Positions 6,575 through 55,094 of a stretch of 64,000 nt of DNA are shown piece after piece. The notes under the pieces were generated by a model that searched no databases, was not told the DNA's origin, and worked only from the letters and a program-made list of their open reading frames with translations. The position numbers and the translations under genes were made by a program. Source of the DNA: Naegleria gruberi (Eukaryota). Where the stretch lies: assembly GCA_000004985.1 (NCBI GenBank), contig GG738895.1; one strand, 5' to 3'. Each line of letters opens with the position of its first letter. The first letter of the stretch is position 1.

Positions 6575-6683
6575 TTATGGAAATAGCTTTACAACACAGT
6601 GTTGTAAACGTTTAATTGGTTCAAAAATGTTAATAAATTTTTTCGTCAATCATCAACTGAGTTGGAATTTATTCTCGGATTAA

Positions 6684-9600
6684 TCAACAACAGCAAGAAC
6701 AACAAGAAGATTTTGAAGATGATCCAGATAATCTCTTTCTTCTCGCTCTTAACACTAAAGCAATGACCACGACAATAATGATGACTACTGTTACAATGAT
6801 AATGAATGAACCACCCAAAGTAGTTGCCAGAATGATAATTTGTTCATTGTTGAGTGAAATTAAATCATTTCTCAATTGTGAAGGTTGCGGCATTCCCTTA
6901 TATTCCGAATTTGCCTTCTTATAATTCTTGTCAATTACTGAAAAGGAAGTCAAGTGAGAAGTTTTGCAAGTAATTAATTGAACATAATATAAAATACCAT
7001 CCACTACTTCCTCATTGTAATATTCAAAAGTGGTAGAAAGTCCTTCACTATTCCACAATTGCATGGAATTATCATAGAATGAACATGTCAAATTGAAAAG
7101 TGTCAAGTTGACTTTGGGAATGTAAACTTTTCCAAATGAAATTTGAATTGGCTCGTTTAGTTGTGAAATTTTCAAAGCTTGATTACTAGAAACGAAGCTC
7201 AATGTTATTACACTAGAAAGGACTTGACCTTTGGTTTCGTCCTTAGACACGGAGGCAATAATGGAAATGTCAGATTTTGGCACTTGATTAGTTTCATTTA
7301 GGTAGGATGATAATGAGCTTGGTAACTTGATAGAAAGCCCATCAAACTTCGTAAAGTTTACCACACGAGAATTCAAATCTTCAACTGTTCCAATAGTTTG
7401 AACAATAATTTCCCTATTCGAATCTTGAATTGGAGCTAGGCATGTGAAATTCTGTTGTTGAGAGAATGATCCTACACAGAACGGAGTAGAACAATCCTTT
7501 CCCAACCAACCTGCTCTACAAGTACATTGATTAGGTGCAGAACAAGTTCCATTTCCATAATTACAAACTTGCGGAGAATTAGCTGGTTGACCAAAACAAA
7601 GATCAATTTCACAATTTAAACCAGTTGAACCAACAGCACAGTTACAAGCATCATAATTTTGGCAATCACCTCTTCCAGAACAAACACTTGCATTTTCAAA
7701 GTGAATTCCAAAACAATTAAAATCTTGACAATACTTTCCATAATATCCAAAAGTACAATTGCATGTTTCTGAAGCAATGCATTGACCTCTTGAATTACAG
7801 ACATTCACATCGGTATTTTCCAAATCGTTACAATAGGTAATATTACAATTGAAACCTGAAAAACCTGGCTTACAAGAGCATGAATTGAGATTCGTACAGT
7901 TTCCATTACGATTATTACAAACTTGTGGAGAATTACTGGCATAACCATAGCAATAAGTAGCACCACAAGCACTTCCATAGAAACCACTATTACACAAACA
8001 CAAATCCTGTTGTAAACAAATTCCATTTCCAGAACAAACATTCAACTGATCTGCCTGCACACCGAAACATGACATGTTTCTTACTTCACAATAAGCTCCA
8101 CCAAATCCATTTTCACATAGGCACGACCGAGAAGCTTGGCATTGACCTCTTCCATTACAAACCTTTGGATCATCTGACATGACATCATTACAAATACTCA
8201 ACTCACAATTTGGACCTCCAAATCCTGGATTACAGGTGCAAAAATTGTAAAACCAACAAGAGCCATGTCCTGAACAAATCTTCTGATCATTAGCCTGCAC
8301 TCCATAGCATGTTTGGTTCAATTCTCTAGTGAGTGTGAAAATATTTCCTCTTGAGGCGAAGGAAATTTCCAAAAATGTCGATTCTTTCACATAAATTGCT
8401 TTTGGATTATCAAGTTGAGAGAAGGGTGGATTGTTCAGTCCCTCCTCTACGTATAGTATTGGAGTAATGAGACCATTAGTCATTGAGATTCTAATTGTTG
8501 ATTCTTCTCCAATGATAAATTCTTTTGTTTTGGTCACGAAGAAACTTGTTGGATATTTTAATTGGGCATTAATGGATTGAATGACAGTATCTCCTGTATC
8601 AGTTCCTCCACCAATGATTCTAATGGCATAGGTCTTGTTCATAACTTGATGGATGGCCATAGTTGTACTTCCTAAAAAGTAAATCATGCCATCAGAACTC
8701 ACAAATAAGGAAGTGATATCTTCCGTTCCAATGAATGCAGTATCAATGGTCAAATTTTGATAAATAATTCTAATTCTATTCTGTGAAGACACATAGATAT
8801 CATTGTTATACAGAGCTATTCCAGATGGATTAGGAACCGATGAAGATCGACCATTGACACCATCTTTGACATTACTGATCATTCCATCACCTGCCAACGT
8901 TTGAACTATTGAATTATTGTACTTGTTAACAAGATGATTTGCTGGTAGTATGTAAAACAAAGCCCCACTTTCATCTGCAACCATTCCACCAACTTGTTCA
9001 TCCGAAACAAGTGAAACTATTCCATTTTCTAGACGATTCATTCTTCTGAAAGGTGAATACTCGGCATATTCACTGAAAAACAATCTATTACTAGAGAATG
9101 TGAATGCATCAATTCTATTAAATGAAGAAAGCAATGGTGGTTGATTACTTGTTGCTACCAAAGTTCCAACAATAGTTGAGATTATTCCATTCTTACTGAT
9201 CTTTCGAATTCTTTGATTGTCGACATCGGCAAAGATGAGTTCATCATTCTCATTGACAACCATATCACCCACTGATGAAGTTTTACTATTAATGGCCAAA
9301 CCTCCATCACCTCCAAAACCATTTTCCATTCCTGCAATTTGCTCAAATTGTCCGCTTGTGTTAAATCTGAAAATTTTGTAAACTTCACATGCAAAATAAA
9401 CATTTCCATTCGAATCAACATCAAAATAAGGATTCAATGAATCTTTCCTGAATAGAGTCAATGCAGTTCCATTCTTGAAAACTTTGTAAAATGTACCCAT
9501 TTCCTGATCGAGAGCATAAAGAGTTTCGTTTACATATTTGGTTGAGTGACTATATTGTGGAAGATTCATAAAGAAAGTAGTATTGGAGGTTCGAATATCT

Positions 9601-10231
9601 AGTTTACGATATGAGCGGGTTGCTGATGATGAGGAGTAGAGTAATTCTCTTTCGTTTAGAATGTGAAGAGAATAGGCTGAACCTTGTAGAAAGTAAACAT
9701 TGGAGACAAGTCCAGTTTTGAAGGAAATTCTTCTGATCATTGCATTTCCACCATCGAGAATATATAAATATTCATTGTTTGGATCAACTGCTAATGAAGG
9801 TATGTATGATCTATTCGAAACATGTTAGTTTCATTTCAAACTAAACCATCCTAAACTTGTAAAACTTACGAAAAGAAAGCATATGTAGCCATAACAGAAT
9901 CTCCACTATACGGTATCAAACTGTTTACTCTAGAATTCCCACCAATCGTATACACATTTCCATTCTTATCAACCTTCTTGATTAGGGGACCTTCTGTGAA
10001 GAATAATTGACCATCTTTCCAAGCCAATGAACCAAGCTGATCAGAAACTCCATAACTAGTGGCTGGAATTCCATTCGTATAGTTGGAACCAACGATGGTT
10101 TTTAGACGATAGGTTGGAGTTTCGAATAGTGCACTCACATGAGATACACACATGCAACTGATTAGCAATAGTGATAAAACCACAGCCACGCACCACAAGA
10201 AACCAAAAGGAACTTTAGGATTTCTTGACAT
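6684..10231 (-). CDS. Single-pass receptor-like protein: signal peptide, NHL-like beta-propeller, ~8 tenascin-type EGF repeats, GPS/GAIN-like motif (C..W..G...CKTSHLTSFSV), TM, short tail ending CCSCCC. Exons 9870..10231 and 6684..9810; 59-nt intron.
   Basis: ORF 9866..10231 supplies the hydrophobic N-terminal signal. GTAAGT at 9869..9864 and AG at 9811 link it in frame to the 1018-aa ORF. EGF repeats look like CNGRGQCQASRSCLCENGFGGAYCE; NHL-like repeats like ELIFADVDNQRIRKISKNG. A GPS motif precedes the TM helix. Paralogous to 19912..22929. Confidence 0.8.
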
Positions 10232-10761
10232 TTTTTATGTAGATGTTGATCCACAAGTTTCTGATTTTTTTTATCCGAATGAGAAAGCTCCAACGAAGGA
10301 TACAAGGCGAAACTGATTTATCTAAATTAGATCAAGAGGAACACCTCTCCAATCAGTGAGGATCAAGCTAATCATGAGATGATGGTTACAAATCAAAGGT
10401 TTGATTTAACTTTTGAGATTTTCATGATCAGTTTTCAGTAATGTGGATTTTTGAGTTTGGATTTTGTGGATAAATTAACAAATATGAAAGTGGGTCAGAG
10501 TATATTTGATCTATACACTTTACTGTAATTAAAATATTGTAAGTGGATTAAATGTTCAAGAATCTTAATAGTTTAAGTATTTAAATTTTGGCGCCAAAAT
10601 AAATGAAAAATGTCTTATAATGCGTTTTCCTATCTGTTCCTTAATCTCTCTTGAATAAGATTATAGCATGAAATAATCTGCACTTGATGTTTTTTGTAAT
10701 TTATTGAAAGATTACAACAGTATTAACATTTAATATTATTTAAATAAATATTTAAAAAAAA

Positions 10762-11984
10762 ATGCGCAAACAACAAGTTCTCTACGTGAGTTGAAAATCC
10801 GATGATTCAAATTCATCAATTTTTTTTTCATGATGATAACCATTGACAGAGTTACGGATCAAATGAATATTCCCTCGTTGGACATAAGGATCGGTTATTT
10901 GAGGAGTGTTTTGTATTGGGAGATGCAACACATATTAAGAGAATGGCTTGCGGAAGATCACACATTCTCTTTGAGAGTATGTTTGTGTAATGATTGAAAA
11001 TTAATTTATCTATATATTTAATATTTAATATTTAAAATATTGTGATTTTAATGATTTAATCTGCTGATGATGAATTATATAAAAGCCTTTAATGGAGAAG
11101 TATTGTCTATTGGAAGAAATGATTATTCTCAATGTGCTATAAGAAAGGCTTCCGGAGGAGAATTAATTAGTAAACCAATGAATTGTCTTTACAAAGATGT
11201 TGGATGTGATGCCAAACCTCTCATCAAGCCTTTTAAATTTACAACTGGATGGTTTCATTCAACATTTATCTCAAACGATCAGAAGAGAATTTACTTTACT
11301 GGATATTATTCTGCCTATTCATCAATGGGACAGACAAAGGATACTTGTTTTTATGATATTACTGATACAGTATTGGAAAAGGATATGCTTGCTGATGATA
11401 GTTACAAAATTACTGATATTGGCAGTGGAGATCACTTTTTTGCATTTGTTGTAAATAACGAGTTTATTGTAGTTGTGGATCAAACAAGAAAAGTTTTTCA
11501 CATTCCAGATTTGAAGGAATTCTTGGTGTTCAAGTCAGGAGTTGCCTTCACAAGAGGAAATGGAAATTTATACTTGGCCAAGAATTATCCAGACAGTGTA
11601 AGCGAGTATGATGGAAAATTTGTGAAAAATCTTCGTTCTACATCTGTTGCCGATTCATTCTCATTCGTATTAAATGGACAAAATCTAAGATTTGGTCACA
11701 GTAATCAACATGGATCAATTGAGATTTACGAGTCGTTCTGTACTGCCTATCTATATGATTCAAAGGAACGTAAATTCCCAGATGAAAGATTTAAGAAAAT
11801 CAATGACGAATTAGAAAAGCACAAAGATTGGGAAATTCTCCAATTCATTACAGGTTCTGACAGTGTTCATATATTGTTGGGAATTAGAGAAACTAAGGAA
11901 GAGCAACGATTCTTTGAGAAATTGAGCAATATTAGACAAGGCACTCATTACACTGATATGCTTGTCAGCTACACTTTCAATTAG
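10762..11984 (+). CDS. RCC1-repeat-like protein. Exons 10762..10785 (24-nt first exon), 10850..10976, 11086..11984.
   Basis: ORF 11067..11984 lacks a proper start. Upstream, ATG (MRKQQVLY) is followed by GTGAGT. Exon 2 encodes SYGSNEYSLVGHKD...VLGDATHIKRMACGRSHILFE (RCC1-like G.N.yGQLG / CG..H motifs). Donor GTATGT at 10977 (phase 1) and acceptor AG at 11085 restore the ORF frame. Confidence 0.5.
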
Positions 11985-12161
11985 TAATCCTTCCAAATAA
12001 TCTTAATCTTGCATGACAAAGCGAGAAATGGTTACACCATTTCAAACTCCGCTTCCCGTTTCTCTTGTTTGGAAATGTTTTACTAGTGAAATTACCCAAT
12101 CACCTTCATCAATCATTGAAAAGTGAAATGTGAAAATATCAAACAGAAAAAAAATACAACA

Positions 12162-14067
12162 ATGAAAAGACCATCCAAACAGCATACCAAGTTGGTGGTC
12201 CTGTTTGTTTTTCTAGTTCTATTGTTAATAGAATGTTGTTTATCGTCGAATCCGACGTTATCGTTTCTCACGAGCACTCCGTTCGAACAGTCAAATGTAT
12301 TGACAGCCATCAATCACAGAAATAATCATAATTCAGAAATTTACTATACCAATAACGTGCAAGAAACCACACAATCATCAAGCAAATGTGAAATTTTCGA
12401 TTTGATGGATCAAGCAGTTGCAGTTCCGTCCGATAGTGCTGCCAATGTGACTAACTATTACTCAACCAAGTCATGTAATTTCGTCAAGTTATTCGCAAGT
12501 GCAGGAGACTATATTCAATTGCAAGGAATTGATTTATTTTACGGACCTAAAGGAGTTTCTCTCTGTGGCATTAGTGATCCAAGTTTAATTTCCACAATCT
12601 ATCCAAGTTTTTCGTGTATGGATTTTTTAAATGACACCTTCACAAAGGAAGAAGGAATTTTGGAAGATCTCTCTGCAATTTCATCTCTATTGGAAGCAAG
12701 ATTTAATAATTCTAGTCCTGATCTGATTCAATGGCCATTCAAGGCCATGTCCAAAGCATTGGAACTTCAATTTGTGAACAAGACATCAACCACCAAAATT
12801 TCAGAATTATTGGATTTATACAATTATTGTAATTTCTGTTCTCATCCTAATTTTGCTTCGTTCCATGCAAAGAAGGCAGTTACACCAGCCCTTCAAATGC
12901 CAATGTTACAAAAAGCATTCACAAATTCACACTGTGGCTCTGGTATTCCAACATTGAATGCCATTGTAACCAATGAATATGATGGCTACTTTGTCACCAA
13001 TGTTGTCATTCAATGTACTTGTAGAGGTGGAGTGGTAACAAATGAGTGTGGAATTTTCTCTGAATTTTTATATCCAATGTTTTCTGGACCAGGTCTTCAT
13101 TCAATTTCATTGATTTTCTATACTTCCATTGGTGTTGTTTCCTTCTTTGTCAATTTCATTCCAATTTTAATGTTGTGTGTTAGAAGATTCCAAAAATCAT
13201 CACATGGTATCAGATCATTCTTTTATCACTTTTTGGATTTGAGATTGCAAGCTGCTGTTTTGTTCTTGTGTTCTGTGATTACTGCCATTACTTCAAGTTG
13301 TCTTGGTTTGGCAGAAAATTCATATGTTGTCTTGTTGATGACTATTGCTGCCTGTTTACAATTTATTTCAACTGTTCCAATTTTGTTCTGTTGGATTGAT
13401 GTCATTTATAGAACTGAAATGAATATGAAAGAAGCTTCATCCCTTGTTGTGTAAGTTAATTTTTAGAGCTTTTCTTATAATAATTTATTTGAAATAGTTC
13501 ACTTTCATTTGGTTTATCTTCAGCTTTGGTGTTTGCATTGGCATTGTATATTGTTGGTTATTCAATCCTTTCAACAGTTAGTGGATACAGAGTCTTGTTC
13601 ATCATTGTTCAAGTTTTCTTGATTGTTGTCATTATGGCTGCTGTCATGATTGCCATTATTTTGACAATTACAGCTGCCAGATTATTGTTCATTATTTCCA
13701 AAACAAAGAAGATTCAAATTTTCAGTTTCAGATTTACCAGATTCTTGTTATATGCAACAATTTGTGGTTCTCCATTCCTTTTGCAAGCAGCTTATTATAT
13801 TGTAATCATTATCGATACGTAAGTAGTTTCAATTTTCAATGAATTTCCAGCATTTTCTCAATAATAATTTGCACAATTCCCAATAATATGATAATAATAA
13901 TTTGAAATTACAGTAAGATGATTTGCAGATTCTATCTCATGTTTTCATACTATTTGGCATCCCTATGTGTCACTTTCATTTCATTTGGTTACATGTACAT
14001 TCTCTTTAACTCTGATGATGTCATGAAATGTTATCCATTCTTGGAGAAACTTTCAAAGAAGAAGTAA
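12162..14067 (+). CDS. 7TM receptor-like protein with signal peptide and ~300-aa Cys-rich ectodomain. Exons 12162..13450, 13498..13818, 13914..14067.
   Basis: First ATG at 12162 gives MKRPSKQHTKLVVLFVFLVLLLIECC. Seven or eight hydrophobic helices are spread over three exons, with GTAAGT donors at 13451 and 13819 and a 47-nt and a 95-nt intron. The ectodomain motif NYCNFCSHPNFASFH is shared with the paralog at 25409..27230. Confidence 0.6.
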
Positions 14068-14277
14068 TACTATAATTTCCATTTCATCATTAAACTACTA
14101 AATTATCAAAAATTGCAACTTTATTTGCAACGCCTCTATTAACAAATTGCCAATTGTTTTGTTAATCATTTCAGTTTGTTTTCGAATATGTACAACCAAT
14201 GTTCTATTCTCTTGTCAAAAATTCATATGAGCTTGCTGTCAAATCCACTTAAGTATTTGACCAAGCATATTGACATT

Positions 14278-14487
14278 CTAACGTTTAAATGATGAACTTT
14301 CCAACCAATCCATAAAGATGTACTCTACAGCTTCCTTGCTCAAATGTTGAGAGAGATGATTTGAAGAAATATGAGGAGTGGTAGAGAAGAGGATATTCGG
14401 TCTTGGAGATGATAATTTAACCGTAAGAGTTGGAGAAGCTCTCTTCTTTGATTGTTTACTTTCAGCAGGGTCAGTTCCTTGAGTCAT
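14278..14487 (-). CDS. Hypothetical small ORF (69 aa); coding status uncertain.
   Basis: ORF track only; sits in a 1.4-kb gap between genes; no recognisable motif. Confidence 0.15.
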   Translation of the reverse strand: MTQGTDPAESKQSKKRASPTLTVKLSSPRPNILFSTTPHISSNHLSQHLSKEAVEYIFMDWLESSSFKR

Positions 14488-15460
14488 GGTATAGCTAGGT
14501 ATTTAGTTATTTTGTTGAGTTGGTAAATTTAATAAGTATTAGTCGTTGATTATTTTAGCAGATATTTGTAGTGTGCTAAATTTATAAGATTCTTATAGTG
14601 ATACTATTATTATATTGTATGCAATATTGTAGATGATGATACAACTGCAGCACGAATACAATTTGATATAGGCTTTATATTTGTAATGATGATAAAGGAT
14701 GATGCGCACCAAGCTAATCAACAACAACTCGTACTTAATCAGCACCACCTCGATATTCGCTGCTGATAATGATGATGGTGGACAATCAATCCGAAAAGCA
14801 ACACACACTGCTTGTTTTTTTCAAAAATGTGTTTGTGGTAGATACCTTTGGATGCTGAACCATCATGAATCAATTATTTCCGGAATGTCACCGTTGTTGA
14901 AAGGATCGTTGATCGTTTTATCGGATTTTAAATTTTACGGTCGCTTTAAAAATAATTTTAAAAATTTAATTTTTGAAATACGTTTTGGGAGGGAAGGACT
15001 AATTTGGACTGGTAGTAAGTAGAGCTAAGGAAATCACTGTAGTCAAGGGAACAAATTTTTTGGTCCCTAGTTGATTTGGGTATTAAATTTATTGAGAATT
15101 TTGAATTTCAAATATTAGAGAGTTGACCAAAATGACAAATTCAGAATTTTACATGAAAACCAATGAAAATAATGAAGAAATAATTGTATTCATTGTATAT
15201 TCATTAGGGGAGATCATCTTGTTTAATTTTGGAAGGAAACATTCATATATTTGATTGTTTCAAAAAGGAAAATCTCTCTCCTGAAAATAATTTAGGAAAA
15301 TTGAATTATTTATCACAGTGAGATATAATCCCAATGGGAACAGGCACAAGTTGTATAAAACAGAATCATGTATAATAACATACAATAGAGCACTCATTGT
15401 GATATTCTTCAATTTTGTAATAAATATTCAAAATTTACATTTCCAAATTGAAAAACACTT

Positions 15461-16588
15461 TTGAAATCAAAGGACCTTGTGTTTCATTTCCAAATGAAAC
15501 TTTTCAAAAAAATGATTCAACATCAACCTACTCTTCATGAAGACGATGAATCAATCACTTATTCGAATGATCATTTATTTGATTCACTCGGTGTTGATGT
15601 CATGATTGGAGAAATATTTCCACATTTTGAAGTTGAAACTCTACACTCAATTTTCACACTAGTATCCAAGTTTTGGTATGTGTGTGTTTGTTTGTATAGA
15701 GTGGAGTTTCTATCATTGAGAGGAGAATCGAATATTTTAGCTCTTTGTTCGAATTCTCCAAGAATGGTGGAAGTCAACAGTTTGGAGTTGATGCAATTGA
15801 GAGGTGAAACCTTGGTGATGAAAAGGATATTTCTTTCGGATAAGTGTTTTCCTAATAGATTTTCTTCACTTACTAGTCTTTCGTTTTATGGATCGAAAAT
15901 TGGAGATTCTTCTCTCAAATATTTAACACATTCGGCTATCTTACCTAATTTAACTGAATTGGATCTGTATCACAATAACATTACTGATAAAGGAATGAAA
16001 TCCATTTGTGAAGGAAATTTGAAACTTTCCATTCTGAAACTCAATTTAAATCGTGTAGGAGATTTAGGTTTTGAATTTCTCAAAAATTCTCAAATTTTGA
16101 AAGAAAATTTAAAAGAACTTTACATGACCTACAATGAAGTTACATCAAAAGGATTGGAAATTCTGAGCGGAATGGAAAATTCACGTCTCGAAACCTTAGT
16201 TCTAGTGAGCAACCGAATAGAATCGAATATTACAAACTTCTGTGCTAGCTCTCTTGCATCTCAATTGAAACATTTAAATTTGTCAAATAACTTATTGGGA
16301 AATAGTGGAGTCTTGGACATTTGTTCGGGAAATTTTCAATCCTTAGAAACCTTAATATTATCAAAGAATGCAATTCCAAAGGAATCCATTAGTATGCTAT
16401 TTGAAAGTAGTAATGGATTAAATTTGAAGAAATTGAAACATTTGGATTTGTATGGAAATGATTATATTCAAGTTGACGAGTTGGCAATTCCAACTTTCAA
16501 TTCCTTAGAAACTCTAATCTTTTCACATAGCTATAGGAACCCTTATTACCACCTATTCTGGCAAACCAAACAATTTTCAGCAAATTAA
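15461..16588 (+). CDS. F-box-like / RNI-type leucine-rich-repeat protein.
   Basis: 375-aa ORF. N-terminal F-box-like stretch (IGEIFPHFEVETLHSIFTLVSKFW), then repeated LxxLxLxxNxI units (LTELDLYHNNITDKGM..., LKHLNLSNNLLGNSGV...). Confidence 0.55.
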   Translation: MKSKDLVFHFQMKLFKKMIQHQPTLHEDDESITYSNDHLFDSLGVDVMIGEIFPHFEVETLHSIFTLVSKFWYVCVCLYRVEFLSLRGESNILALCSNSPRMVEVNSLELMQLRGETLVMKRIFLSDKCFPNRFSSLTSLSFYGSKIGDSSLKYLTHSAILPNLTELDLYHNNITDKGMKSICEGNLKLSILKLNLNRVGDLGFEFLKNSQILKENLKELYMTYNEVTSKGLEILSGMENSRLETLVLVSNRIESNITNFCASSLASQLKHLNLSNNLLGNSGVLDICSGNFQSLETLILSKNAIPKESISMLFESSNGLNLKKLKHLDLYGNDYIQVDELAIPTFNSLETLIFSHSYRNPYYHLFWQTKQFSAN

Positions 16589-16605
16589 TAAGGAATATTA
16601 ATTTT

Positions 16606-16615
16606 AAACCAAAAA
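16606..16615 (+). promoter_or_regulatory. Upstream element AAACCAAAAA, 70 nt 5' of tRNA-like gene copy 1 (DUSE-like).
   Basis: The same decamer lies 69-71 nt upstream of all four tRNA-like genes. It resembles the dictyostelid ncRNA upstream element (A/T)CCCA(C/T)AA, which sits about 60 nt upstream of ncRNA genes. Confidence 0.4.
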
Positions 16616-16675
16616 TGATTTGAATTATTAAAAGAAAATTCACAAATATAGTTAGTGGGAAGATTGCAGATTTGT

Positions 16676-16751
16676 GGGTGAATAGTTTAATTGGGAGAAC
16701 GTAGCCGTTGCACTAGAAGCTAAGGCGGTAGATCGAACCTACCTTCACCTA
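16676..16751 (+). ncRNA. tRNA-like Pol III gene, copy 1 (non-canonical 21-nt anticodon arm: stem TAGC/GCTA, loop 13 nt).
   Basis: Acceptor GGGTGAA/TTCACCT, D-arm GTTT-AATTGGGA-GAAC, T-arm GGTAG-ATCGAAC-CTACC, discriminator A. A T5 run at 16760..16764 follows immediately. Confidence 0.6.
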
Positions 16752-16871
16752 CGCTTAGCTTTTTCCCCACCAATTCTTAATAATTATTTAATAATACTAT
16801 ATAAATAATATTTAAAGAAATCATATCATACATTAATATTTAGGGTGAATATTTAAAGATATGATGTTAAA

Positions 16872-18472
16872 TTATGATTTTTCCTTTTCACTATTCTCTT
16901 CGTTCATCATAACCAATATTTGTTGAATAATTTCACATAAGGCAGTATCTTGGTCAGAATGCATCATTTCTTCGAGAGTATCCCTTATTCCACACTTATT
17001 CATTTCCTCTCTGAAATTATTGTTTTTCAATAGACTCAAAAGAGTACTCAAACAAATTTGGTTAACAGCTACTAATGACAATCCTTGATGAAGTATTGGT
17101 ACAACTCCAATCTTAATTAAATAATCAATAATATCGTCCGTTGCCGTAGTACATAAATTGTAGATAACATAGTAAGGTTCCTCTTTCACTATTAATTCGG
17201 TATTTTGTTTGACAGCTTCAATCACTAATTCAATAATTCCAGACTCAACAGCCGCTCTAATATGATCAATGGTTCCAGCAGTAATATTTGAAACGATAAA
17301 AATTGCTTCTTTCTTTAGAAAAGCATTCTCATTTAAAATGAAGGATGATAATGCAGATAATAATCGAATATTCAACATGTGGTCTGTATGAGAATTATTT
17401 CTTGTAACTATATATCCAACTAATTGAAGACAACCACTGAAAATATGAATATATTAACGTGAAATATTAAAGAATAATTTGAGAATAGATACTTACACTT
17501 GTATACTTGTACATTCAGAGGAAAGCAGCAAAATAACTTTTTCGATAATATTACCATAAGCTTGAATAAGTATTTCGATATGATCATCACTTATTGCTAT
17601 TTGAATAAGTGCCCAACAAACATTATTGACAACATCCTCATCAGAAGTATTAATTAATTTGGAGAGAACTGGCAGAACCATTTTGACATATTTGATAGAT
17701 ACATATGGTATTCCTCTCATCAAATTTACTAAGCACCATGAACCTAAATTAATCATAAGCCAATCATATCAAATAATATAGACCTACCCGTTCTTAGTAA
17801 ATTTACGAGAAATGTTTCATTTAAAAGATCTAATAAAGGCGTTAATACATCCCACTCCAGGACGAAATCTCTGAACCTGATAGAATCTCCACAAATATTT
17901 CCCAAAGCCCAAATGGCTTGTTCTCTCACGTTACAATCTGTCGAGTTTTTCAGTAGATTGATAAATGTAGGAACACATCCCAGCTCTACAACATGTGCTG
18001 TATCATATGGTGATCCACTAGCAATATTTGTCAATGACAATACTGATTCAAAAATCAATTTGTCAACCTGCACTTTTGTAATTGGATTTTCAGATTGATT
18101 ATTCCCATTTTCAATAGTGTAATATTTTGTAATATTCTCATGATCAAGAAAGTTTACCAACATTTTTGTACTACCGGCTTCAATGACCTTTCGAATATTG
18201 GCCGGTCGGTTATCCTCTCTCACTAATAGGCTTCTAATTGTCGTTACAGTTTCCAATACAGTTTTAAAGGAATTACATTGCATATCCAAATAATAATTTA
18301 AAATTCCGAGTTGATCAAGAGACAAGACTATTTCTCTTCTCTTGAGATGACGATTGCAAAATTTGGTTCGGGATTTATCAGAAATGCTTTTTCTAATTTT
18401 TTGTTTTTCTTTCCAAATGATTGCATTGGCGTGGAAAGATGATGAAATTGTTGCTGATTGTTGTTCACGCAT
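16872..18472 (-). CDS. Divergent importin-alpha (karyopherin-alpha)-like ARM-repeat protein. Exons 17788..18472, 17497..17743, 16872..17436; introns 44 and 60 nt.
   Basis: ARM repeats resemble importin-alpha (LTNIASGSPYDTAHVVELGCVPTFINLL...VREQAIWALGNICGDS; NVCWALIQIAISDD; KEAIFIVSNITAGT). N-terminus is basic and IBB-like. Splice junctions GTAGGT...TTTAG and GTAAGT...TTTCAG restore frame between the three track ORFs. Confidence 0.7.
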
Positions 18473-18638
18473 TTTTTTTTAAAAATTTGCTTGGAAATGA
18501 AAAATTCCATAAATATTTATGCAATCATTGTAAACTAAAAGATACAACAGCAATGATTGAAAATTTATTGAATGAAACCAAATATTTGCATAAATAGCAT
18601 ACAAGTTTTATCAATTTTTCGATAATGTTATTAATTTT

Positions 18639-18648
18639 AAACCAAAAA
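18639..18648 (+). promoter_or_regulatory. Upstream element AAACCAAAAA, 71 nt 5' of tRNA-like copy 2.
   Basis: Same decamer and spacing as copies 1, 3 and 4. Confidence 0.4.
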
Positions 18649-18709
18649 CTGTTGGAAATTTCCAAATAAAATTTCTCGAAAAAGGTTAATTATGAAATTG
18701 ATTTTTTGT

Positions 18710-18784
18710 GGGTGAATAGTTTAGTGGGAGAACATAGAAGGTACGGTAGATTCTAAGGCGGTAGATCGAAACTACCTTCACCTA
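18710..18784 (+). ncRNA. tRNA-like Pol III gene, copy 2 (anticodon arm stem TAGAA/TTCTA, loop 11 nt).
   Basis: Acceptor GGGTGAA/TTCACCT, D-arm GTTT-AGTGGGA-GAAC, T-arm GGTAG-ATCGAAA-CTACC. T-runs at 18793..18796 and 18800..18804. Confidence 0.6.
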
Positions 18785-18871
18785 CACAAAACTTTTAAAT
18801 TTTTGAGTTTACAATAAATGTTTATTTTCTTTAAATAGGCATTTTCAATGCAATTTAAAAAGAATAATTGT

Positions 18872-18881
18872 AAACCAAAAG
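18872..18881 (+). promoter_or_regulatory. Upstream element AAACCAAAAG, 69 nt 5' of tRNA-like copy 3.
   Basis: Variant of the decamer conserved upstream of the four copies. Confidence 0.35.
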
Positions 18882-18940
18882 ATTGATTGACATATTTTGA
18901 GAACTTTTACAATAATGATTGGTTCGAATTTCTGATTAGT

Positions 18941-19016
18941 AGGTGAATAGTTTAATTGGGAGAATGCAGTGGTCTATGTTGAATCTGCGGTGGTAGATCG
19001 AAACTACCTTCGCCTA
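18941..19016 (+). ncRNA. tRNA-like Pol III gene, copy 3 (A1:U72, with U4:G69 wobble in acceptor; anticodon arm stem GCAG/CTGC, loop 15 nt).
   Basis: Acceptor AGGTGAA/TTCGCCT, D-arm GTTT-AATTGGGA-GAAT, T-arm GGTAG-ATCGAAA-CTACC. T5 run at 19020..19024. Confidence 0.6.
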
Positions 19017-19152
19017 CTCTTTTTCCCTCCAAAATATGAGATAAATCATTTGATGCCTAGAAGACAAAGTACTGTTGAGATATATGATAAAGATCAAGTT
19101 TAAAAAATATGTGGAAATGTCATCATCTCTTTGAATATAGAAAATTAATTGT

Positions 19153-19162
19153 AAACCAAAAA
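19153..19162 (+). promoter_or_regulatory. Upstream element AAACCAAAAA, 71 nt 5' of tRNA-like copy 4.
   Basis: Same decamer and spacing. Confidence 0.4.
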
Positions 19163-19223
19163 TTGAATTACAATATTTTTAGAAATTTCACAATTAGGGT
19201 TGAGATCATAATTGGTCGTTGTT

Positions 19224-19300
19224 AGGTGAATGGTTTAATTGGGAGAACGCAGAGGTCCAGAGTAGAATCTGAGGTGGCAGATCGAAACTGCCTTCACCTA
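19224..19300 (+). ncRNA. tRNA-like Pol III gene, copy 4 (A1:U72; T-stem GGCAG/CTGCC compensatory; anticodon arm stem CAGA/TCTG, loop 14 nt).
   Basis: Acceptor AGGTGAA/TTCACCT, D-arm GTTT-AATTGGGA-GAAC, T loop ATCGAAA. T5 run at 19303..19307. Confidence 0.6.
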
Positions 19301-19368
19301 ACTTTTTACAACAATATTAAATTTTTTTAAATATTGTAAAGTTTTATTATAAATATACACAGTTTCCA

Positions 19369-19734
19369 CTAATCTTCAAATTGAGGTGGTCTTTCATGAT
19401 CTGCAGAAGGTTCTCCTTTAAAAACTTTTGAAGTTCCCTTTCCAACAGTTTCCTTGTCGATGGAGGACGAAACTCCTCTTTGCATATTAACTTCTGGATT
19501 GTAATTAGTTGAGATTGGATCAAATCTCGATTCTGGAATGTGTTCTGATGAATGGTGAGGATGACTAGTTTCGAATAATTCTGAATCTCTTCCAACAAGA
19601 TTACCTGAATGATGTTGTTGTTGGGAATTGTTTAGGATAGGTTGTTTATCATCTTGGCCAACTGATAATGAAGATGATCTGCCAGTGGAGGGAAGTGGTG
19701 GAGAGCCACCAAGAGATGGTCGATTTGGAAACAT
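19369..19734 (-). CDS. Hypothetical Ser/His/Pro-rich protein (121 aa).
   Basis: ORF with ATG at 19734, divergently oriented to the 19912 gene across a ~180-bp shared 5' region. No motif recognised. Confidence 0.35.
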   Translation of the reverse strand: MFPNRPSLGGSPPLPSTGRSSSLSVGQDDKQPILNNSQQQHHSGNLVGRDSELFETSHPHHSSEHIPESRFDPISTNYNPEVNMQRGVSSSIDKETVGKGTSKVFKGEPSADHERPPQFED

Positions 19735-19911
19735 TTTTTTATATTCGAAACTTGGTAATTTCCAACTTTAAAGAATTTTAAAAAAGGAAAGTTTACTTTT
19801 GGGATGTTAAAAATCGTACATGCTTCCCACCAATCATCAAACTGTGCTGGAAGATTCTAGTTGTTGGCATCAGAAAGTAGACGAAAGAAAGGGAACCATT
19901 AGAAAAAAAAA

Positions 19912-22900
19912 ATGGTAAAGCTCTGGTATTTTCTGACAGTTTTATTGTCAATATTGATACTAGTGAGCCATTCATGTCAAGCAAAAGTCATTGATCCAAA
20001 TTCTCTCAACGCGGCAGTTGCTACTCATCTATACGAAAGAAAATTTCTGGGAGCTTTATGTGATGGAACTACTGGACTTGCATGTTATACTGGATATGTA
20101 AAACAAACCTTTCTCTACAATGAAACAGAATTGTATTTTACTAATAGTTTTACCAAGTCCATTAACAAGTATAATCTTCAGACGAAAGTGGTGGAAACTA
20201 TTGTTGGAACAGGTTCTTATCACAGAGCTCCTTTAACGCTCAGCGATTTGTATGCAACTCCAAAGGAAACTAATATTGGAGAACCTAATAGCGTTGCTGT
20301 TTATCAAGGATTCGTCTACTTTACAACAATTGAAAATACTGACGTGATTTTCAGAGTCAAAAGTGAAGGTAGTGGACTTGTTACAATCTTTGCTGGTGTT
20401 TCTGGGTCAACTGGTTATAATCCTTTGGTAATTTCAAGAACCTCTTCACCACTTTCTGGTCCAACTTATCTGAATTTCTATTCGAATGGTAATTTAATCT
20501 TGTATGAGAGTGAAATTTGTACCATTCGATTAATTTCTGGTAATAATATTACAACACTCGCAGGAAATGGCCTATGCAACTATGCCTATGTAAACAACAC
20601 ACTTTCGAATGGAATTTCGGCCATGACAATTTCCACCGATCAAATACTCTACATTTCCACACCTAGTGGAGTTATAATGAAATGGAATGGTGCAGATTTC
20701 GTAACTGTCTATGACACCCAAGCTTTTGTCAGCAGTTTGGCAGCAAACTCTGCAAATATTTACTTTACAACAGATACGAATGAGTTAAGCTCAGTTTCTA
20801 TTGATGGTTCGAATAGAGTTGTGTTGATGGGACCTAATCTAGGTTTCATGAGTGATGGCCAAGTTCTTTCTGGTGGAAAGACTGCCTCTCCAATGGCATT
20901 GTCCATTAGTAAGGCAAGTTCAACATTATTCTTTTCCGAAAATGGAAATGCCAGAATTAGAACTTATTTAAATGCCAATGTTAAAACCCTTATTGGATTT
21001 AGCTCATCAGGTTCAGCAGCTACTACTCTTGTCAATCCAACAAAGATGGCTCTCGTTGGATCCAATCTCTATGTTTTAGAGACCATGTCCGGCAGCATCC
21101 TCAATTATGATGTTAGTGGAAACGCTCCTGCTGGAGGTGGTGGTTACAAATTAGTGACATCCATTGCAGGATGTTCCAGTATTGTTGCCATTAATAATAC
21201 AGTCTATGTTGGCTCAACTCTATATAATTCAGTGTATAAGATTGAGGGAACTAAGGCGATAAGAATTGCTGGAAATGGAACTAATTTATCTAGTGGAGAT
21301 GGAAAGTATGCGAATGCTTCAACCATTTCAAATCCATTGGCGTTGGCTTCTGATTCGAGTGGAAGTTTATACATTCTTTCTACAAATATTATTAGAAAGG
21401 TCGATAAGAATGGAATCATTTCCACTCTATACAATTATTTTAGCACTGGATTGAATGATATTTACATTAGTGAAAAGGATGAAATATTAATCAGTGATTT
21501 GAAAGGTTATGTTTATCAATTGACCTGTACAACAGATTTATTTCAATTTTGTGGCTATATCCAAATTGCTGGTGTTTCTAATGGATTAGCCAGAAGTGTT
21601 GGTTTTAATAATGCATTAGAAGTGCCAATTAAGCCACTCACCATCTCTGCAGTGTCAAATTTCAAAACTGGTTACTGGAATACTTTGTTAATTTCTGAAT
21701 CGACAAGTATTTCAGTAGTTTCAGAAGGACTTATTTCTGGATTAGTCTACAATCCAAAGAATAGCCCAACAGTTAGTTTTCAAACCCTTCAAGTGACTGG
21801 CTTTGCAGTCAACCAAACCAATGGAGTCATTTACGTTTCAGGTCCTTACGGAATTTCAACATTAACTCCTTACAAATTACCAAGGGAAGCTTGTCCATGT
21901 TCTGGAAATGGAATTTGCTATTCGAATAATCCAAATCTCTGTCTTTGTGATCAAGGATGGAGTGGAACCAAATGTGCACTTCCATTGTGTAATGGAATTC
22001 TTTCTACAAATCCACAAGTTTGTACGAATGGTCAAGGAGTTTGTAGTGCTCCAGATAGTTGTGTTTGTAAATCTGGATTTGTTGGAACTCAATGTCAAAT
22101 TCCATTCTGTGTAGGATCAACTCTGAATGAAAACTTTACTTGTTCTGAAAGTCAGTCAAATTCGGGAAGCAATTCATCGACAAGTACAAAACAGGAAATT
22201 ATTGTTGAGGTTGTTGAGACAGTGACTGATCTAAATTCCAAGAATTTGACATTTACTACTGTTGACACTATTGAAGTTGTCTTTCCTTCAAACTTTTCAA
22301 GTTATCTTTCACAAACCATTTCACAAATTGCCAATAATCCAATTACACTAGTTTCGTCTGTGGTTGACTCTACAAATTCAAGCACTAATCCAAGTGAAAA
22401 TCCTGTCAAACCTCAACTCGTAGTCAGTCCAGTAATCACTCTCTCACTATTTACCAATTCTTCCATGATAATTTCTGTGAAAAACTTGGAGAAACCAATC
22501 GAATTACTCTTCACAAATATTCAACTCTCAAAAATTGAATCTTCCTCCAATCTTACATGCATGTTTTTCGATACCTCAATCAATGATTGGAGCGACGAAG
22601 GAATTTCCTCAAAAATCATTTCCATTCAACAAGCCGATTCTCAATTCGTAATTTCCATGAAATGTGAAACGAAACATTTAACTTCCTTTGCAGTAATTGA
22701 TAAGAATTATAAGAAACAAGTTTCGTCTCCCAATGAAGGAGGAAACAAAATACCAGCAACTGTTTCTGAATGGAAAAGTCAATTGGAAGGATTGAGTGAA
22801 AGTGAAATTATTGCAATTTCAGTTTCGATTGGTGGATCATGTTTGATTATTGCAACTTTGGCGATTTTAATTAGTGTAGTTTGTATCATTGTCATGAAGA

Positions 22901-22929
22901 GAAAGAAAAATCGTTGTTTAACCATTTAA
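19912..22929 (+). CDS. Paralog of the 6684..10231 receptor: signal peptide, NHL-like propeller, EGF repeats, GPS/GAIN-like motif (CMFFDTSINDWSDEG...MKCETKHLTSFAVI), TM, short tail ending CLTI.
   Basis: 1005-aa intronless ORF. Collinear with the 6684 gene through the segments IIVEVVETVTDLNSKNLTF / IIVQTIGTVEDLNSRVVNF and KHLTSFAVIDKNYKK / SHLTSFSVIDKNYKK. Confidence 0.8.
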   Translation: MVKLWYFLTVLLSILILVSHSCQAKVIDPNSLNAAVATHLYERKFLGALCDGTTGLACYTGYVKQTFLYNETELYFTNSFTKSINKYNLQTKVVETIVGTGSYHRAPLTLSDLYATPKETNIGEPNSVAVYQGFVYFTTIENTDVIFRVKSEGSGLVTIFAGVSGSTGYNPLVISRTSSPLSGPTYLNFYSNGNLILYESEICTIRLISGNNITTLAGNGLCNYAYVNNTLSNGISAMTISTDQILYISTPSGVIMKWNGADFVTVYDTQAFVSSLAANSANIYFTTDTNELSSVSIDGSNRVVLMGPNLGFMSDGQVLSGGKTASPMALSISKASSTLFFSENGNARIRTYLNANVKTLIGFSSSGSAATTLVNPTKMALVGSNLYVLETMSGSILNYDVSGNAPAGGGGYKLVTSIAGCSSIVAINNTVYVGSTLYNSVYKIEGTKAIRIAGNGTNLSSGDGKYANASTISNPLALASDSSGSLYILSTNIIRKVDKNGIISTLYNYFSTGLNDIYISEKDEILISDLKGYVYQLTCTTDLFQFCGYIQIAGVSNGLARSVGFNNALEVPIKPLTISAVSNFKTGYWNTLLISESTSISVVSEGLISGLVYNPKNSPTVSFQTLQVTGFAVNQTNGVIYVSGPYGISTLTPYKLPREACPCSGNGICYSNNPNLCLCDQGWSGTKCALPLCNGILSTNPQVCTNGQGVCSAPDSCVCKSGFVGTQCQIPFCVGSTLNENFTCSESQSNSGSNSSTSTKQEIIVEVVETVTDLNSKNLTFTTVDTIEVVFPSNFSSYLSQTISQIANNPITLVSSVVDSTNSSTNPSENPVKPQLVVSPVITLSLFTNSSMIISVKNLEKPIELLFTNIQLSKIESSSNLTCMFFDTSINDWSDEGISSKIISIQQADSQFVISMKCETKHLTSFAVIDKNYKKQVSSPNEGGNKIPATVSEWKSQLEGLSESEIIAISVSIGGSCLIIATLAILISVVCIIVMKRKKNRCLTI

Positions 22930-23000
22930 TTCATTGTAAAATATATAATACTATTTAATACAAGTTACAAAAAAAATTATTTAAAAAAATATTAAAAAAA

Positions 23001-24462
23001 ATGCAGCAACATCACAATCAACCTTTCCCGTCCAATTCATCATCATCATCATCACTACCACATCACCATCATCATCAAAATAATAATATTCACCAAATAG
23101 TTAATCATCAACATTACATGGAAAATCCGCTTTCCCGAATAAATTTCCGAGCAGAAAAACAATTTCTCGAAAGGCGGGAATTTTATGGCAAGTGTAGGAA
23201 CGTGGAAGAGTTTGAAAAGTTGGAGAAGATATTTGAGAATGTGTACAAGGCAAGGGATTTGAAGAGTAATGAGATTGTGGCGTTGAAGAGATTAGATTTT
23301 AGTTCGAGATATGAGGAGGGAATTTCGTTGGCTTATTTGAGAGAAATTTCATATTTGCAACAATTTTGTCAAGAATTGAAACATGGAAATATTTTGGGAT
23401 TGAGGGAGATGGTGGTTGGAAGTAAATTGGATAGTGTATTTATTGTGATGGATTTTATAGAGAATGATTTGACGACTGTGATTGATAAATCAAAGAGATT
23501 TGCATTGCTTGAATCGGAAATTAAGTGTATAATGTTACAAATTTTAGAGGGTGTGAATTATTTACATGAAAATTTGATTATTCATAGGTAAATATTCGAT
23601 TTTGAATGATTCAAAACCTTTGAGTAGAGATTTAAAACCCTCTAACATTTTATATGATAGAGGAATTATTAAGATTATTGATTTTGGATTGGCAAGGAGT
23701 GACACAAAGTTTTTGGATGGAGATCTCGCCTATGGAAGTAGTCATCAAAAGGACTCTATCATTGAAATGTTCAAGAAAAAGACGCCAAATCTCATAACCC
23801 TCTGGTATAGACCTTTAGAACTCTTGTTGGGGACATTGGACTATGACAAGTCGATTGATATGTGGAGTGTTGGATGTATTTTTGCTGAAATACTATTGAG
23901 GAGGCCATTATTTGGAGCTGATACTGAAATTCAAGCATTTGATATGATATTCAAACTGTTAGGAGCACCAAGTGAATCATGGCTCAAGTCAGGGAATTTC
24001 CCTTCTGCCTCCAAATACCTTTCCCCTAATTTACTGAAAAAGTATGAAAATGTGAATGCCCGTGAAAATATTAGAAGAACATTCTCTCAAGCTAATGTAG
24101 ATCCGAAATGTATTGACCTCATTGAAAAGCTTCTCGTTATTGATCCAAAGAAACGACTCACATGTAAGGAAGCACTCAATCATGACTATTTCAAGACTTA
24201 TCCACTTGCATGCTCACCCAAACAATTACCCTCCTTTATTGAGAGAGATTTTGTGCAATATAAACGATCATCACACAATCATCGTCATTTATACGATGAT
24301 GACAATTATGAGAGAGATGGTTATCAGCATCAGCAGCACCACCATCAGCACAATAATTATTCCACACATAACGATCAGCACAACGAATATCAGCAACACA
24401 ACAAACGAGGAAGAAATGATTACAATTCCGAAAGAAATGATCAGTGGAAGAAACGAAAGTAA
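23001..24462 (+). CDS. CDK-family Ser/Thr protein kinase with His/Ser-rich N- and His/Gln-rich C-terminal extensions. Exons 23001..23587 and 23628..24462; 40-nt intron.
   Basis: Kinase subdomains VALKRL, a PSTAIRE-like ISLAYLREISYLQ, HRDLKPSNIL reconstituted across the intron (GTAAAT at 23588, AG at 23627), DFGLAR, and WYRPLELLLG. Confidence 0.8.
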
Positions 24463-24610
24463 CAATATTCGCCAATCCATCCAATAATGAGCTCATTCAA
24501 GAAATCAAAAAACCAATATTACAAAATTCAATTAAATATTAATATATAATAGTTTAAATAAAAGTAAACACAAAAATTGTGATTATTTTCCAATAACAAT
24601 CACACACATA

Positions 24611-25243
24611 TTAGAGATTCTTTGAAAGCCAATCCAGACCTTCCTTCAATCCATCACCACTCACAGCACTACACAATTGCAAATTCCACACTTGTTTAAT
24701 TTCCTTCAATCCCAAAAACGATTCCAATTTTTCTCTGGACTTGTTTGCTTCATCCAGATCTTGTTTGTTGGCAAATATCAGAATTTTAGCTTTGGCCAAC
24801 AAGGGATCATTAATTACGGAAAATAATTCTTCTTTACATTCTTCCATTCTGTCACTATCCGCAGAATCTACAACAAAGACAAGAGCTTGTGATTTGGAAA
24901 AGTAATGTTTCCAAAGTGTTCTCACTTGTTTTTGTCCACCTAGTGAAATTAAAGTGACATTTTTGAAATTATTGAATCAAAATTAAAATCATCATTAGAT
25001 GTAGTACATACCTAAATCCCACATACACAATTTAGTTCCGTTGTAATCCAACTCTTCTACATTGAAACCAATAGTTGGAATCGTCTGTATTGTTTGATTA
25101 ATTTGAAGTTTATAGAGAATGCTTGTTTTACCAGCGCCATCAAGACCTAAAAATTTAATGGGATGATGACAGAGATACTACATACCTAGAAGAAGTATTC
25201 TTGGTGGCGAGAGAGCGAATAATGGTTTTATAAAATTGCCCAT
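24611..25243 (-). CDS. ARF-like small GTPase (N-myristoylation MGN...). Exons 25186..25243, 25012..25146, 24611..24939; introns 39 and 72 nt.
   Basis: Spliced product reads [33 protein letters not shown]...[12 protein letters not shown]...[17 protein letters not shown]...FANKQDL...[19 protein letters not shown], with ARF family motifs GLDGAGKT, WDxGGQ, NKQD, SA. Confidence 0.8.
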
Positions 25244-25408
25244 GTTTGACAGTTGGCAGGTAGAGGTTGAATGATGGTAATACTCCTTTTGGCGTTTTTT
25301 TTGTTGTTTTTTGCGCTTATTCCGGTTTGTTTTCCACTACGATATTTGTTGAACACAAGCATCAAAATAACAAATTCAATATTCTTAACTTTAAATATCT
25401 ATTCGAAT

Positions 25409-27230
25409 CTAATGAATCTTATTATCTGAAACTGTAGAACATATCGAACTGTCCTTTGTTACAAATGAATTGTCTGGTGGAACATAGGTAGAGTCTCGGT
25501 TATCTTTAAAGGAATCATCTTTTCCAATGAAAGGTTCTTCATTTTCTGCAGAATGTTCATTTAGGATAATCTTCTTACTCTTCTCCAATGTTGAAAAGAT
25601 CTTTCTCACAACGTTGCAATTGTAGCACTCTTTAACGTGTTCCTTGTCAAACATGGTTGACATGGTATTGAGAAATGCACAAAATGCAAAAAGTGGCGAG
25701 ATGAAATCAAAATAGTATACAATGCTGAATTCTAATGAACTAGTTCCTTTTAACGTAAGAATATAACTTGCTGTACTCAACAAAAGGGGAATTGCAAGTG
25801 TCAAGGTAAGAAGAACGAATCTTTTAAAATACTATACTCATTGTAATGAATTAGAAGCCATTGCTACTTACTGTTGTTTTGAAAAAGTTGACATTTGTTA
25901 CAGTTCTCAATGCTTTCACCAATCTTATTGAAAGAATGATAAAGAGTGTTGAGGTAACCACAAGTGGGACATACCACGCCACAATGACACTGATAATACC
26001 GTTCGGTATTAAACTCTCGCCGATCATTATGAATAAACTTGTTGTAATTACTGATAAAAAACAACAAGCGTAAATAACACCAGCCCCAAAGGTTAAAATC
26101 TTGAAAATCTTACTGTTTGCCTGTTCCTTTGTTGTTAAGAACATGTAAATTCTGTCAAAAACCAAAAACGCTGGCAACATTGCATAGTAAATAGAGAATA
26201 GAGCTATGGCTGAGAATATCGTTCCCATTCCATACAGTATCAGATTATCAGAGAATGGAGGAGATATTGAATAGCATGTGACCAGAATCTCTCCAATTGT
26301 TGAAGTTATCAAGAGGAATAGAGTTGACAACTCAACAGATCTAAACTTTCTTCTTTTAACAATATGAACAAAATAAGGAATCACAACAAGGAAGAAACTC
26401 AGCACAACTGTTGGAATGCCAAACAAGAAAACGACAACTATTCTCGAAACGACTGGTGAATTTGAAAATTCTACAAAACAATCACTCGAAAAGGCATTGA
26501 GAGAAGAACAATAGCAAATAAATGGAGTCAATAAACTGAGATATCTGTCATTGGCAAAATAAATGGGTATTCCTTTCGAAAATCCTCCACAAAGAAAGGT
26601 CGAAGGATATTCCACCATTGTTGAATTGTCCAGACTCATCTTCCAATCAATAATTTTCAAGTGATGTTGCAGATAGTTCTTGGCACTCGAACAATACTGA
26701 CAATAATTAATTGCCATATAATCGGAAGTGTTTCTTCTCTGATACAACTCAAGACAATCCAAATCCTTGAATAATGAACATAAATCCTCTCTTTCCCTAC
26801 TAGCAACCACAGGAGAATATTGAAATTTGTTGCTGCTTGCATCTCCAAAGTATATCGATCGGATCGTTAAGGGAATCATTACTTTCTCACAACCAAAAGC
26901 GAAGGGTAATTCAGGAAACTTGTCCATGAATTCAGAATTCCATTCCACTTTTTCAAATACATACTCTCTTCCCGGTTTAATAAAGAAGGAACAATTCTTC
27001 CACTCCCCATCGACATAATCATTCTTATTAAATTGTATATTATTTCTTTCCGTACTTAGTCCATTCACCATTAAGGCACTACTCATCAAACAAAACCACA
27101 TCATTGTTATTATCATCATCATCATGTACATTAATAAATTATTCTTCCTTCCATTTCCCTTACACTTTCTATAAGCACATCGCCCGAGTGCTCTAGAAAA
27201 AAACGCACAAAAACTCGCAGCTGTTTTCAT
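25409..27230 (-). CDS. 7TM receptor-like protein, paralog of 12162..14067 (Cys-rich ectodomain + 7 TM helices). Exons 25872..27230 and 25409..25831; 40-nt intron.
   Basis: GTAAGT at 25871..25866 and AG at 25832 join the two track ORFs in frame (...VNFFKTT|YFKRFVLLTLTLAIPLL...). The ectodomain motif NYCQYCSSAKNYLQH matches NYCNFCSHPNFASFH of the paralog. Confidence 0.6.
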
Positions 27231-51366: not shown

Positions 51367-51656
51367 GTGTTGGCAAGAAATGAAAATAATAAATTGTAAA
51401 TTTATTAATGTAGAGTTGTGAGGAACGATGTAACATTGGTATTTCGAAAAAATTGTTAACAATACTCATATTTTCAAAAAAATTACAAATGTAGACAATG
51501 ACCAAAATTCCACTTCATTTCCTGATTAATCTTATTTACAGAATCCAAAAAGTTCCAGCAAGCAAAACTCCCTTAAAATATTTCTCATCAAAAAAAAAAG
51601 AATCAACAACTCCTTGTTTTTAAATATCTTTGAAATCACACAACCAAAAGAGAATC

Positions 51657-55048: not shown

Positions 55049-55094
55049 GTTTCAACAAGTTCCACACATCATTCACATTTCACTCAAAAAAAAA

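Follow-up and report, generated by a model that had tools for sequence, protein, structure and literature searches.

The stretch of DNA analysed here (the window) comprises 64,000 nucleotides of Naegleria gruberi (GenBank assembly GCA_000004985.1, contig GG738895.1). Its G+C content is approximately 33%, and its genes have short GTAAGT...AG introns. The analysis concerned four genes, designated A to D. An earlier note on this DNA had described A and C as paralogous single-pass receptors with a GAIN/GPS segment and B and D as paralogous seven-helix membrane proteins, together resembling a split adhesion G-protein-coupled receptor (GPCR). Gene models were rebuilt, and all four genes were recovered where the note had placed them. 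Coordinates are those of the window throughout.

6684-10231, minus strand: gene A (NAEGRDRAFT_72108), 1162 amino acids (aa), exons 9870-10231 and 6684-9810
12162-14067, plus strand: gene B, 587 aa, three exons (12162-13450, 13498-13818 and 13914-14067)
19912-22929, plus strand: gene C (NAEGRDRAFT_72113), 1005 aa, single exon
25409-27230, minus strand: gene D, 593 aa, two exons (25872-27230 and 25409-25831) with a 40-nt intron at 25832-25871

The rebuilt model of A contains one GTAAGT..AG intron (9811-9869, 59 nt) and matched the public protein EFC40060.1 exactly. The product of C was 100% identical to P0001/EFC39987.1, an N. gruberi "predicted protein". Splice junctions of B were backed by colinear alignment with its N. 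fowleri and N. lovaniensis orthologs, and the splice models of B and D also by colinear alignment to each other. No exact copy of spliced B or D was found in a public collection of 15 billion proteins, and no N. gruberi entry was among the matches of the B/D family profile search. For both genes, the public N. gruberi annotation probably either lacks a model or has one that differs.

A and C share one layout: a signal peptide, an NHL propeller region, a teneurin-type EGF array, a juxtamembrane domain, one transmembrane (TM) helix and a short tail. Hydropathy analysis revealed an N-terminal hydrophobic signal and a single C-terminal TM helix in each protein, as claimed previously. The NHL and EGF regions were likewise recovered by Pfam, with TEN_NHL and EGF_2/EGF_Teneurin matches in both (in A, TEN_NHL at E 4e-16 and EGF_2 at E 4e-21). 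EGF repeats number about 7 in A versus 2-3 in C. The two proteins are paralogs, with 37% identity over the last 345 aa (BLASTP). In a word-index protein search, full-length C matched only itself and bacterial NHL proteins. C residues 760-1005 matched nothing, the identical P0001 included, and the index may cover C-terminal parts of long proteins poorly. The following parts were located:

7473-8267, minus strand: EGF array of A, aa ~636-900 (Pfam EGF_2, EGF_Teneurin and EGF_TEN; CxCxxGxxGxxC at six positions)
6915-7424, minus strand: GAIN subdomain B of A including the GPS motif, aa ~917-1086 (aligns to the domain of C; member of the family profile A5 described below)
6948-6956, minus strand: His-Leu/Thr putative autoproteolysis triad of A, aa 1073-1075 (invariant columns in a 21-sequence alignment)
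6750-6806, minus strand: single TM helix of A, hydropathy core aa 1123-1141
22189-22716, plus strand: GAIN subdomain B of C including the GPS motif, aa ~760-935
22675-22683, plus strand: His-Leu/Thr putative autoproteolysis triad of C, aa 922-924 (invariant columns in the same alignment)
22840-22896, plus strand: single TM helix of C, hydropathy core aa 977-995

The GPS had been placed immediately before the membrane. It does precede the single TM helix, but the spacing from the Thr to the helix is ~48-53 residues. The C-terminus of A reads ...SSKSSCCSCCC (6687-6720, minus strand), a poly-Cys tail just inside the membrane which might be a site of multiple palmitoylation. The tail of C, in contrast, is short and basic.

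For identification of the juxtamembrane domain, the quoted GPS motif was located in both proteins (CMFFD..W..EG..C.T.HLTSFAV in C and CSFYD..W..EG..C.T.HLTSFSV in A). The triad is intact, with His-Leu-Thr at the expected site; the putative cleavage bonds are L1074|T1075 in A and L923|T924 in C. When single sequences were searched against Pfam GPS (PF01825), C reached 20.6 bits (cut-off 22.5) and A gave no match. Since this result was marginal, evidence from a family profile and from structure was needed for a GAIN assignment. A phmmer search of both single stalks against PDB was uninformative and returned noise (TAL effector, G-alpha) and one ADGRG3 chain at E 0.6.

A profile was therefore built from the A and C stalks (A2), and 1.84 billion representative proteins were searched with it exhaustively by HMMER. 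This search yielded 32 proteins, most of which share the layout NHL, EGF, stalk, one TM helix and 50-80 further residues. Where named matches were looked up, the source was N. gruberi, N. lovaniensis or N. fowleri. Also retrieved were a catfish adhesion GPCR (Pfam GPS five times, and 7tm_2), a REJ+GPS protein, a protein combining GPS with a THH1/TOM1-type seven-helix domain, and two short GPS proteins, all of which pass the Pfam GPS threshold. A further profile (A5), made from 21 family stalk segments only, was searched against PDB. It matched 12 adhesion-GPCR chains at E 5.6e-6 to 0.09, ahead of anything unrelated, the best being ADGRG6 (E 5.6e-6), ADGRG1 (7.5e-5) and ADGRL3 (4e-4). The alignment spans profile positions 53-188 and, with ~135 positions, reaches far beyond the 45-residue GPS. 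The AlphaFold2 model of the GAIN-B domain had a predicted local distance difference test score (pLDDT) of 82 and a predicted template modelling score of 0.80. The twisted beta-sandwich fold of GAIN subdomain B was found, with the GPS strands integrated. N. lovaniensis homologs already bear the UniRef name "GAIN-B domain-containing protein".

All 21 sequences of the family alignment agree at the GPS residues C, W, C, T, H, L, T and F, the Phe lying 2 residues past the Thr of the putative cleavage site. The segment past this site, TSF(A/S)VID.N(Y/F)KK, is very strongly kept across paralogs that are otherwise ~35% identical. The cleavage site is lost in P0131, a more distant family member. Because A5 matches adhesion-GPCR GAIN structures and A2 retrieves Pfam-passing GPS proteins, A and C bear a genuine GAIN subdomain B with GPS. 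The earlier note had proposed profile searches for GPS/GAIN and had allowed that these might find no significant match; with the family profile a significant match was obtained.

The single-pass GAIN-B family has at least 6 N. gruberi members on at least 5 scaffolds. Its members come from Naegleria species and from metagenome and SRA assemblies of unattributed origin. More than 20 homologs stop after one TM helix as A and C do, and all family members either end 50-80 aa past the GPS or carry a kinase. A cytoplasmic Ser/Thr kinase following GAIN-B and a single TM helix was seen in P0136/P0146 (N. fowleri FDP41_013523) and in P0144 (ENA assembly). In the literature searched, no description of a GAIN-coupled receptor-kinase architecture was found, nor any paper linking Naegleria with a GAIN domain. 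A and C lack a 7tm_2 domain in the same polypeptide, having one TM helix and then a stop, and do not classify as adhesion GPCRs (class B2). Because some relatives bear their own cytoplasmic kinase, A/C-type proteins appear autonomous, and the family as a whole points to self-contained receptors with variable outputs. In P0138/P0145 (Logan SRA assemblies), a GPS of the four-Cys type (Pfam 35 bits) is fused straight to a seven-helix domain of the THH1/TOM1/TOM3 type (PF06454), not 7tm_2.

The GAIN domain of A and C departs from the canonical form in several respects. The six-helix subdomain A was not found: the alignment leaves no room for it, and the model contains only two short helices. Between the last EGF repeat and the beta-sandwich lies only a low-complexity Ser/Asn-rich linker. 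Two of the four GPS cysteines are present, namely the outer pair (equivalents of C1 and C3). The second disulfide pair is absent, its "GC" and "CxC" positions reading G(I/L/V) and C.T. Two GPS cysteines in the same pattern also occur in P0141 (REJ+GPS) and in P0142, a protist protein, as they do in human polycystin-1. Polycystin-1 is cleaved, while several adhesion GPCRs with consensus GPS sites stay uncleaved. Assignment of the disulfide was based on latrophilin-1, where the outer GPS disulfide is C801-C832 (PMC3321182).

These departures bear on whether the domain self-cleaves. In latrophilin-1, both GAIN subdomains are required for cleavage, and deletion of subdomain A abolished it (PMC3321182). 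Because subdomain A is absent in A and C and only one GPS disulfide is possible, their domain may not cleave. It would then be a rigid juxtamembrane stalk or an interaction module, with HLT kept for folding of the last beta-strands; the uncleaved consensus sites in adhesion GPCRs fit such a role. Set against it are the invariance of H, L and T, catalytic base and nucleophile included, in 21/21 sequences, and the retrieval by A2 of the REJ/polycystin-like two-Cys GPS of P0141, polycystin-1 itself being a cleaved protein. We regard the uncleaved stalk as possible but doubtful, and self-cleavage of the minimal GAIN-B domain as plausible.

For B and D, seven hydrophobic segments after the ectodomain were found by hydropathy, as previously claimed. 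B has a signal peptide, an ectodomain of ~280 aa with 8 family-conserved cysteines, seven TM helices and a short tail. D has a signal anchor, an ectodomain of ~210 aa, seven TM helices and a tail of ~85 aa. Cys-rich ectodomains of ~300 aa had been reported for both. Ectodomains do exist, but with the above lengths and 10 cysteines each (3.5-4.8%) they are better termed Cys-containing. The reported shared motif is exact in both proteins as far as NYC(N/Q)(F/Y)CS, and its remainder fits only with a one-residue indel:

12822-12842, plus strand: NYCNFCS motif of B, aa 221-227 (kept in P0111-P0113 and in D)
26688-26708, minus strand: NYCQYCS motif of D, aa 175-181

Sequence comparison showed that B and D are true, if remote, paralogs (BLASTP 23% identity, E 8e-6; profile of B orthologs against D in hhalign, E 1.4e-5, 80% probability, 281 columns). 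Neither matched a Pfam family, even at E<1, or a PDB sequence at E<10. Comparison by hhalign with GPS-fused seven-helix domains (catfish adhesion GPCR P0128, protist GPS-7TM protein P0138) gave probabilities below 1%, and membership in 7tm_2 (PF00002) or another known GPCR family was not found. Besides the orthologs of B in N. fowleri and N. lovaniensis, a profile search of a 5.8-billion-protein index retrieved just one JGI protein (unattributed metagenome). The AlphaFold2 model of the N. fowleri ortholog is poor (pLDDT 48) and consists of seven long helices and a C-terminal helix. The public model of the N. lovaniensis ortholog (C9374_002780, P0112; locus L001, 10001-12630) has a C-terminal extension of ~200 aa that neither B nor the N. 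fowleri ortholog shares; the model is probably fused with the next gene.

The missing Pfam and PDB matches and the poor model are what would be expected if B and D were non-receptor seven-helix proteins (a transporter, an enzyme or a trafficking factor) with a superficial likeness to GPCRs. Their layout, however, is receptor-like, with a signal peptide, a conserved-Cys ectodomain, seven helices and a cytoplasmic tail, and a non-receptor identity is considered unlikely. B and D are read as an orphan seven-helix family, probably GPCR-like, whose ectodomain eight conserved cysteines would stabilise. As such they constitute an uncharacterised lineage-specific family.

The earlier note had suggested that the two classes may be halves of a two-component module, or may reflect an ancestral unfused state. 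In a two-component receptor, the cleaved single-pass GAIN-B protein would act in trans, offering its ectodomain or a tethered peptide to the seven-helix protein encoded nearby. Its basis is that a GAIN-class gene lies 2-2.5 kb from a seven-helix-class gene twice in 20 kb. The striking conservation of TSF(A/S)VID.N(Y/F)KK past the cleavage site is in keeping with it, as is the Drosophila Cirl precedent, in which a single-pass isoform cooperates with a seven-helix isoform (PMC13197933). The spacing was confirmed, but the pairs are not adjacent genes, as one unrelated gene lies within each:

11067-11984, plus strand: RCC1-like gene between A and B (Pfam WD40_RLD/RCC1_2)
23001-24462, plus strand: CDK-like protein kinase gene between C and D (Pfam Pkinase; own ATG)

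In view of the receptor-kinase relatives, the kinase gene 3' of C was considered as a part of C. This was rejected because of the stop codon of C, the AT-rich spacer, the kinase's own ATG and its CDK-like character. Pair orientations also differ, A/B being head-to-head and C/D tail-to-tail. No other paralog pair was found in the window, and with the differing orientations this leaves a simple segmental duplication of an A-B block unsupported. Also in the window, but without bearing on the present question, are genes at 51630-53165, 54927-57389 and 44688-47636 (all plus strand); among their products are a sodium:neurotransmitter symporter (SNF, E 4e-95), a further protein kinase and a protein resembling Enhancer of polycomb.

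For analysis of linkage in sister species, 22 kb around the B orthologs of N. lovaniensis (L001) and N. fowleri (L003) and 24 kb around a N. lovaniensis GAIN-B gene (L002) were used. No A/C-like sequence was found by tblastn in L001 or L003, that is, within +/-10 kb of the B orthologs, and no B/D-like sequence in L002. N. fowleri and N. lovaniensis share the gene order 6PF2K, RCC1-like, B, ATP-grasp/citrate-synthase-like around the B ortholog. Positions 1-20000 of the window have only B and an RCC1-like open reading frame upstream of it in common with these loci, without further synteny. Local synteny is thus scrambled between N. gruberi and the other two species.

The two-component module is therefore not supported: linkage is not conserved, B and D resemble neither adhesion 7tm_2 domains nor a protist GPS-fused seven-helix domain, and A/C relatives appear autonomous, being spread over scaffolds and in some cases equipped with their own kinase. 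The Thr-to-TM linker of ~50 aa is also unlike the short tethered agonists of adhesion GPCRs. Naegleria moreover has fused receptors already, since N. fowleri 7TM-RGS proteins carry GPS motifs together with EGF/lectin ectodomains (PMC9283941); because of these an ancestral unfused state is not indicated either. Taken together, a split adhesion GPCR is very improbable. A looser form, in which free-standing single-pass GAIN-B proteins act in trans on the B/D family, the TSFAVID.N(Y/F)KK segment or the whole receptor engaging a B/D-type protein after self-cleavage and shedding, would represent a tethered-agonist system that is "split" by nature in a non-animal lineage, but is scarcely probable at all. 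That the two classes lie close together in these 20 kb is peculiar to N. gruberi; genome history or coincidence explains it best, rather than a two-component receptor, although some local relationship, historical or functional, is conceivable.

The overall reading, to which we assign a probability of roughly 0.72, is that A and C are type I GAIN-B receptors and B and D an orphan seven-helix family, with no functional pairing between them. Points weighing against it are the sub-threshold Pfam GPS score of C with no match in A, the missing subdomain A and second disulfide, and the presence of two members of each of two small families within 20 kb, which is unlikely by purely random placement. 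A and C are two old paralogs of a type I surface receptor family and most likely serve as adhesion or sensing receptors. From the observed domains and topology, we infer that the NHL beta-propeller region is likely the ligand- or surface-binding part and that the EGF array may be a spacer projecting it away from the membrane. GAIN-B would cut itself at the Leu-Thr bond of the invariant HL|T, and the ectodomain fragment would be held non-covalently until adhesive or mechanical load, or a ligand, frees it. The event might be relayed by the short tail, which is poly-Cys in A and basic in C, or by a partner protein; in some relatives the fused kinase would take this role.

GAIN domains are known from animal adhesion GPCRs, polycystins and a few protists, e.g. 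Dictyostelium and Tetrahymena (PMC3321182). Added here is an expanded Naegleria family with a minimal GAIN domain (subdomain B only, one disulfide) on single-pass NHL/EGF receptors, some relatives being receptor kinases. Non-animal GAIN domains are known, and sister-species homologs are automatically annotated as GAIN-B. The single-pass NHL/EGF form without subdomain A, sometimes kinase-coupled, is a new architectural variant but not categorically new. If the minimal domains self-cleave, cleavage would require neither subdomain A nor the second disulfide, and GAIN-based mechanosensitive shedding would not be tied to seven-helix signalling. The annotation of two "predicted proteins" (A and C) is corrected, and an orphan seven-helix family is flagged in a genus that includes a lethal human pathogen.

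For comparison with known systems, adhesion-GPCR GAIN domains were considered first (ADGRG6, 6v55; BAI3, 4dlo; CD97, 9mqr; CELSR1, 8vy2; GPR56, 5kvm). They have the layout Cys...Trp...Cys-x-Thr-x-His-Leu|Thr-x-Phe in common with A and C, and in both the domain ends a large adhesion-type ectodomain before the membrane. A and C differ in that they lack subdomain A, one of two GPS disulfides and one of two Trp residues, and in that ~50 residues and a single TM helix follow instead of a 7tm_2 bundle. The GPS of polycystin-1/REJ proteins resembles that of A, C and P0141 in its two-Cys pattern (C.Y/F.D...W..G......C.T.HLT.F). A and C, however, have no REJ or PLAT Pfam match and no multi-pass channel-like domain, and their ectodomain is made of NHL and EGF parts.

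Among Pfam models, those for NHL and EGF derived from teneurins fit the A and C ectodomains best. The order is reversed, since A and C are type I proteins with NHL followed by EGF, whereas teneurins are type II proteins with EGF followed by NHL. A and C also lack the YD shell, FN-plug and toxin-like C-terminus (no YD or Tox-GHH Pfam match), and teneurins lack a GAIN domain. The N. fowleri GPS-7TM-RGS proteins (PMC9283941), from the same genus, likewise have an adhesion-type ectodomain and a GPS before the membrane. A and C differ from them in being single-pass and without RGS, and the fused proteins were not among the 32 stalk-profile matches. The single-pass isoform of Drosophila Cirl (PMC13197933) is GAIN-bearing like A and C and has a possible seven-helix partner; it is a splice isoform of one adhesion-GPCR gene, whereas A/C and B/D are separate genes.

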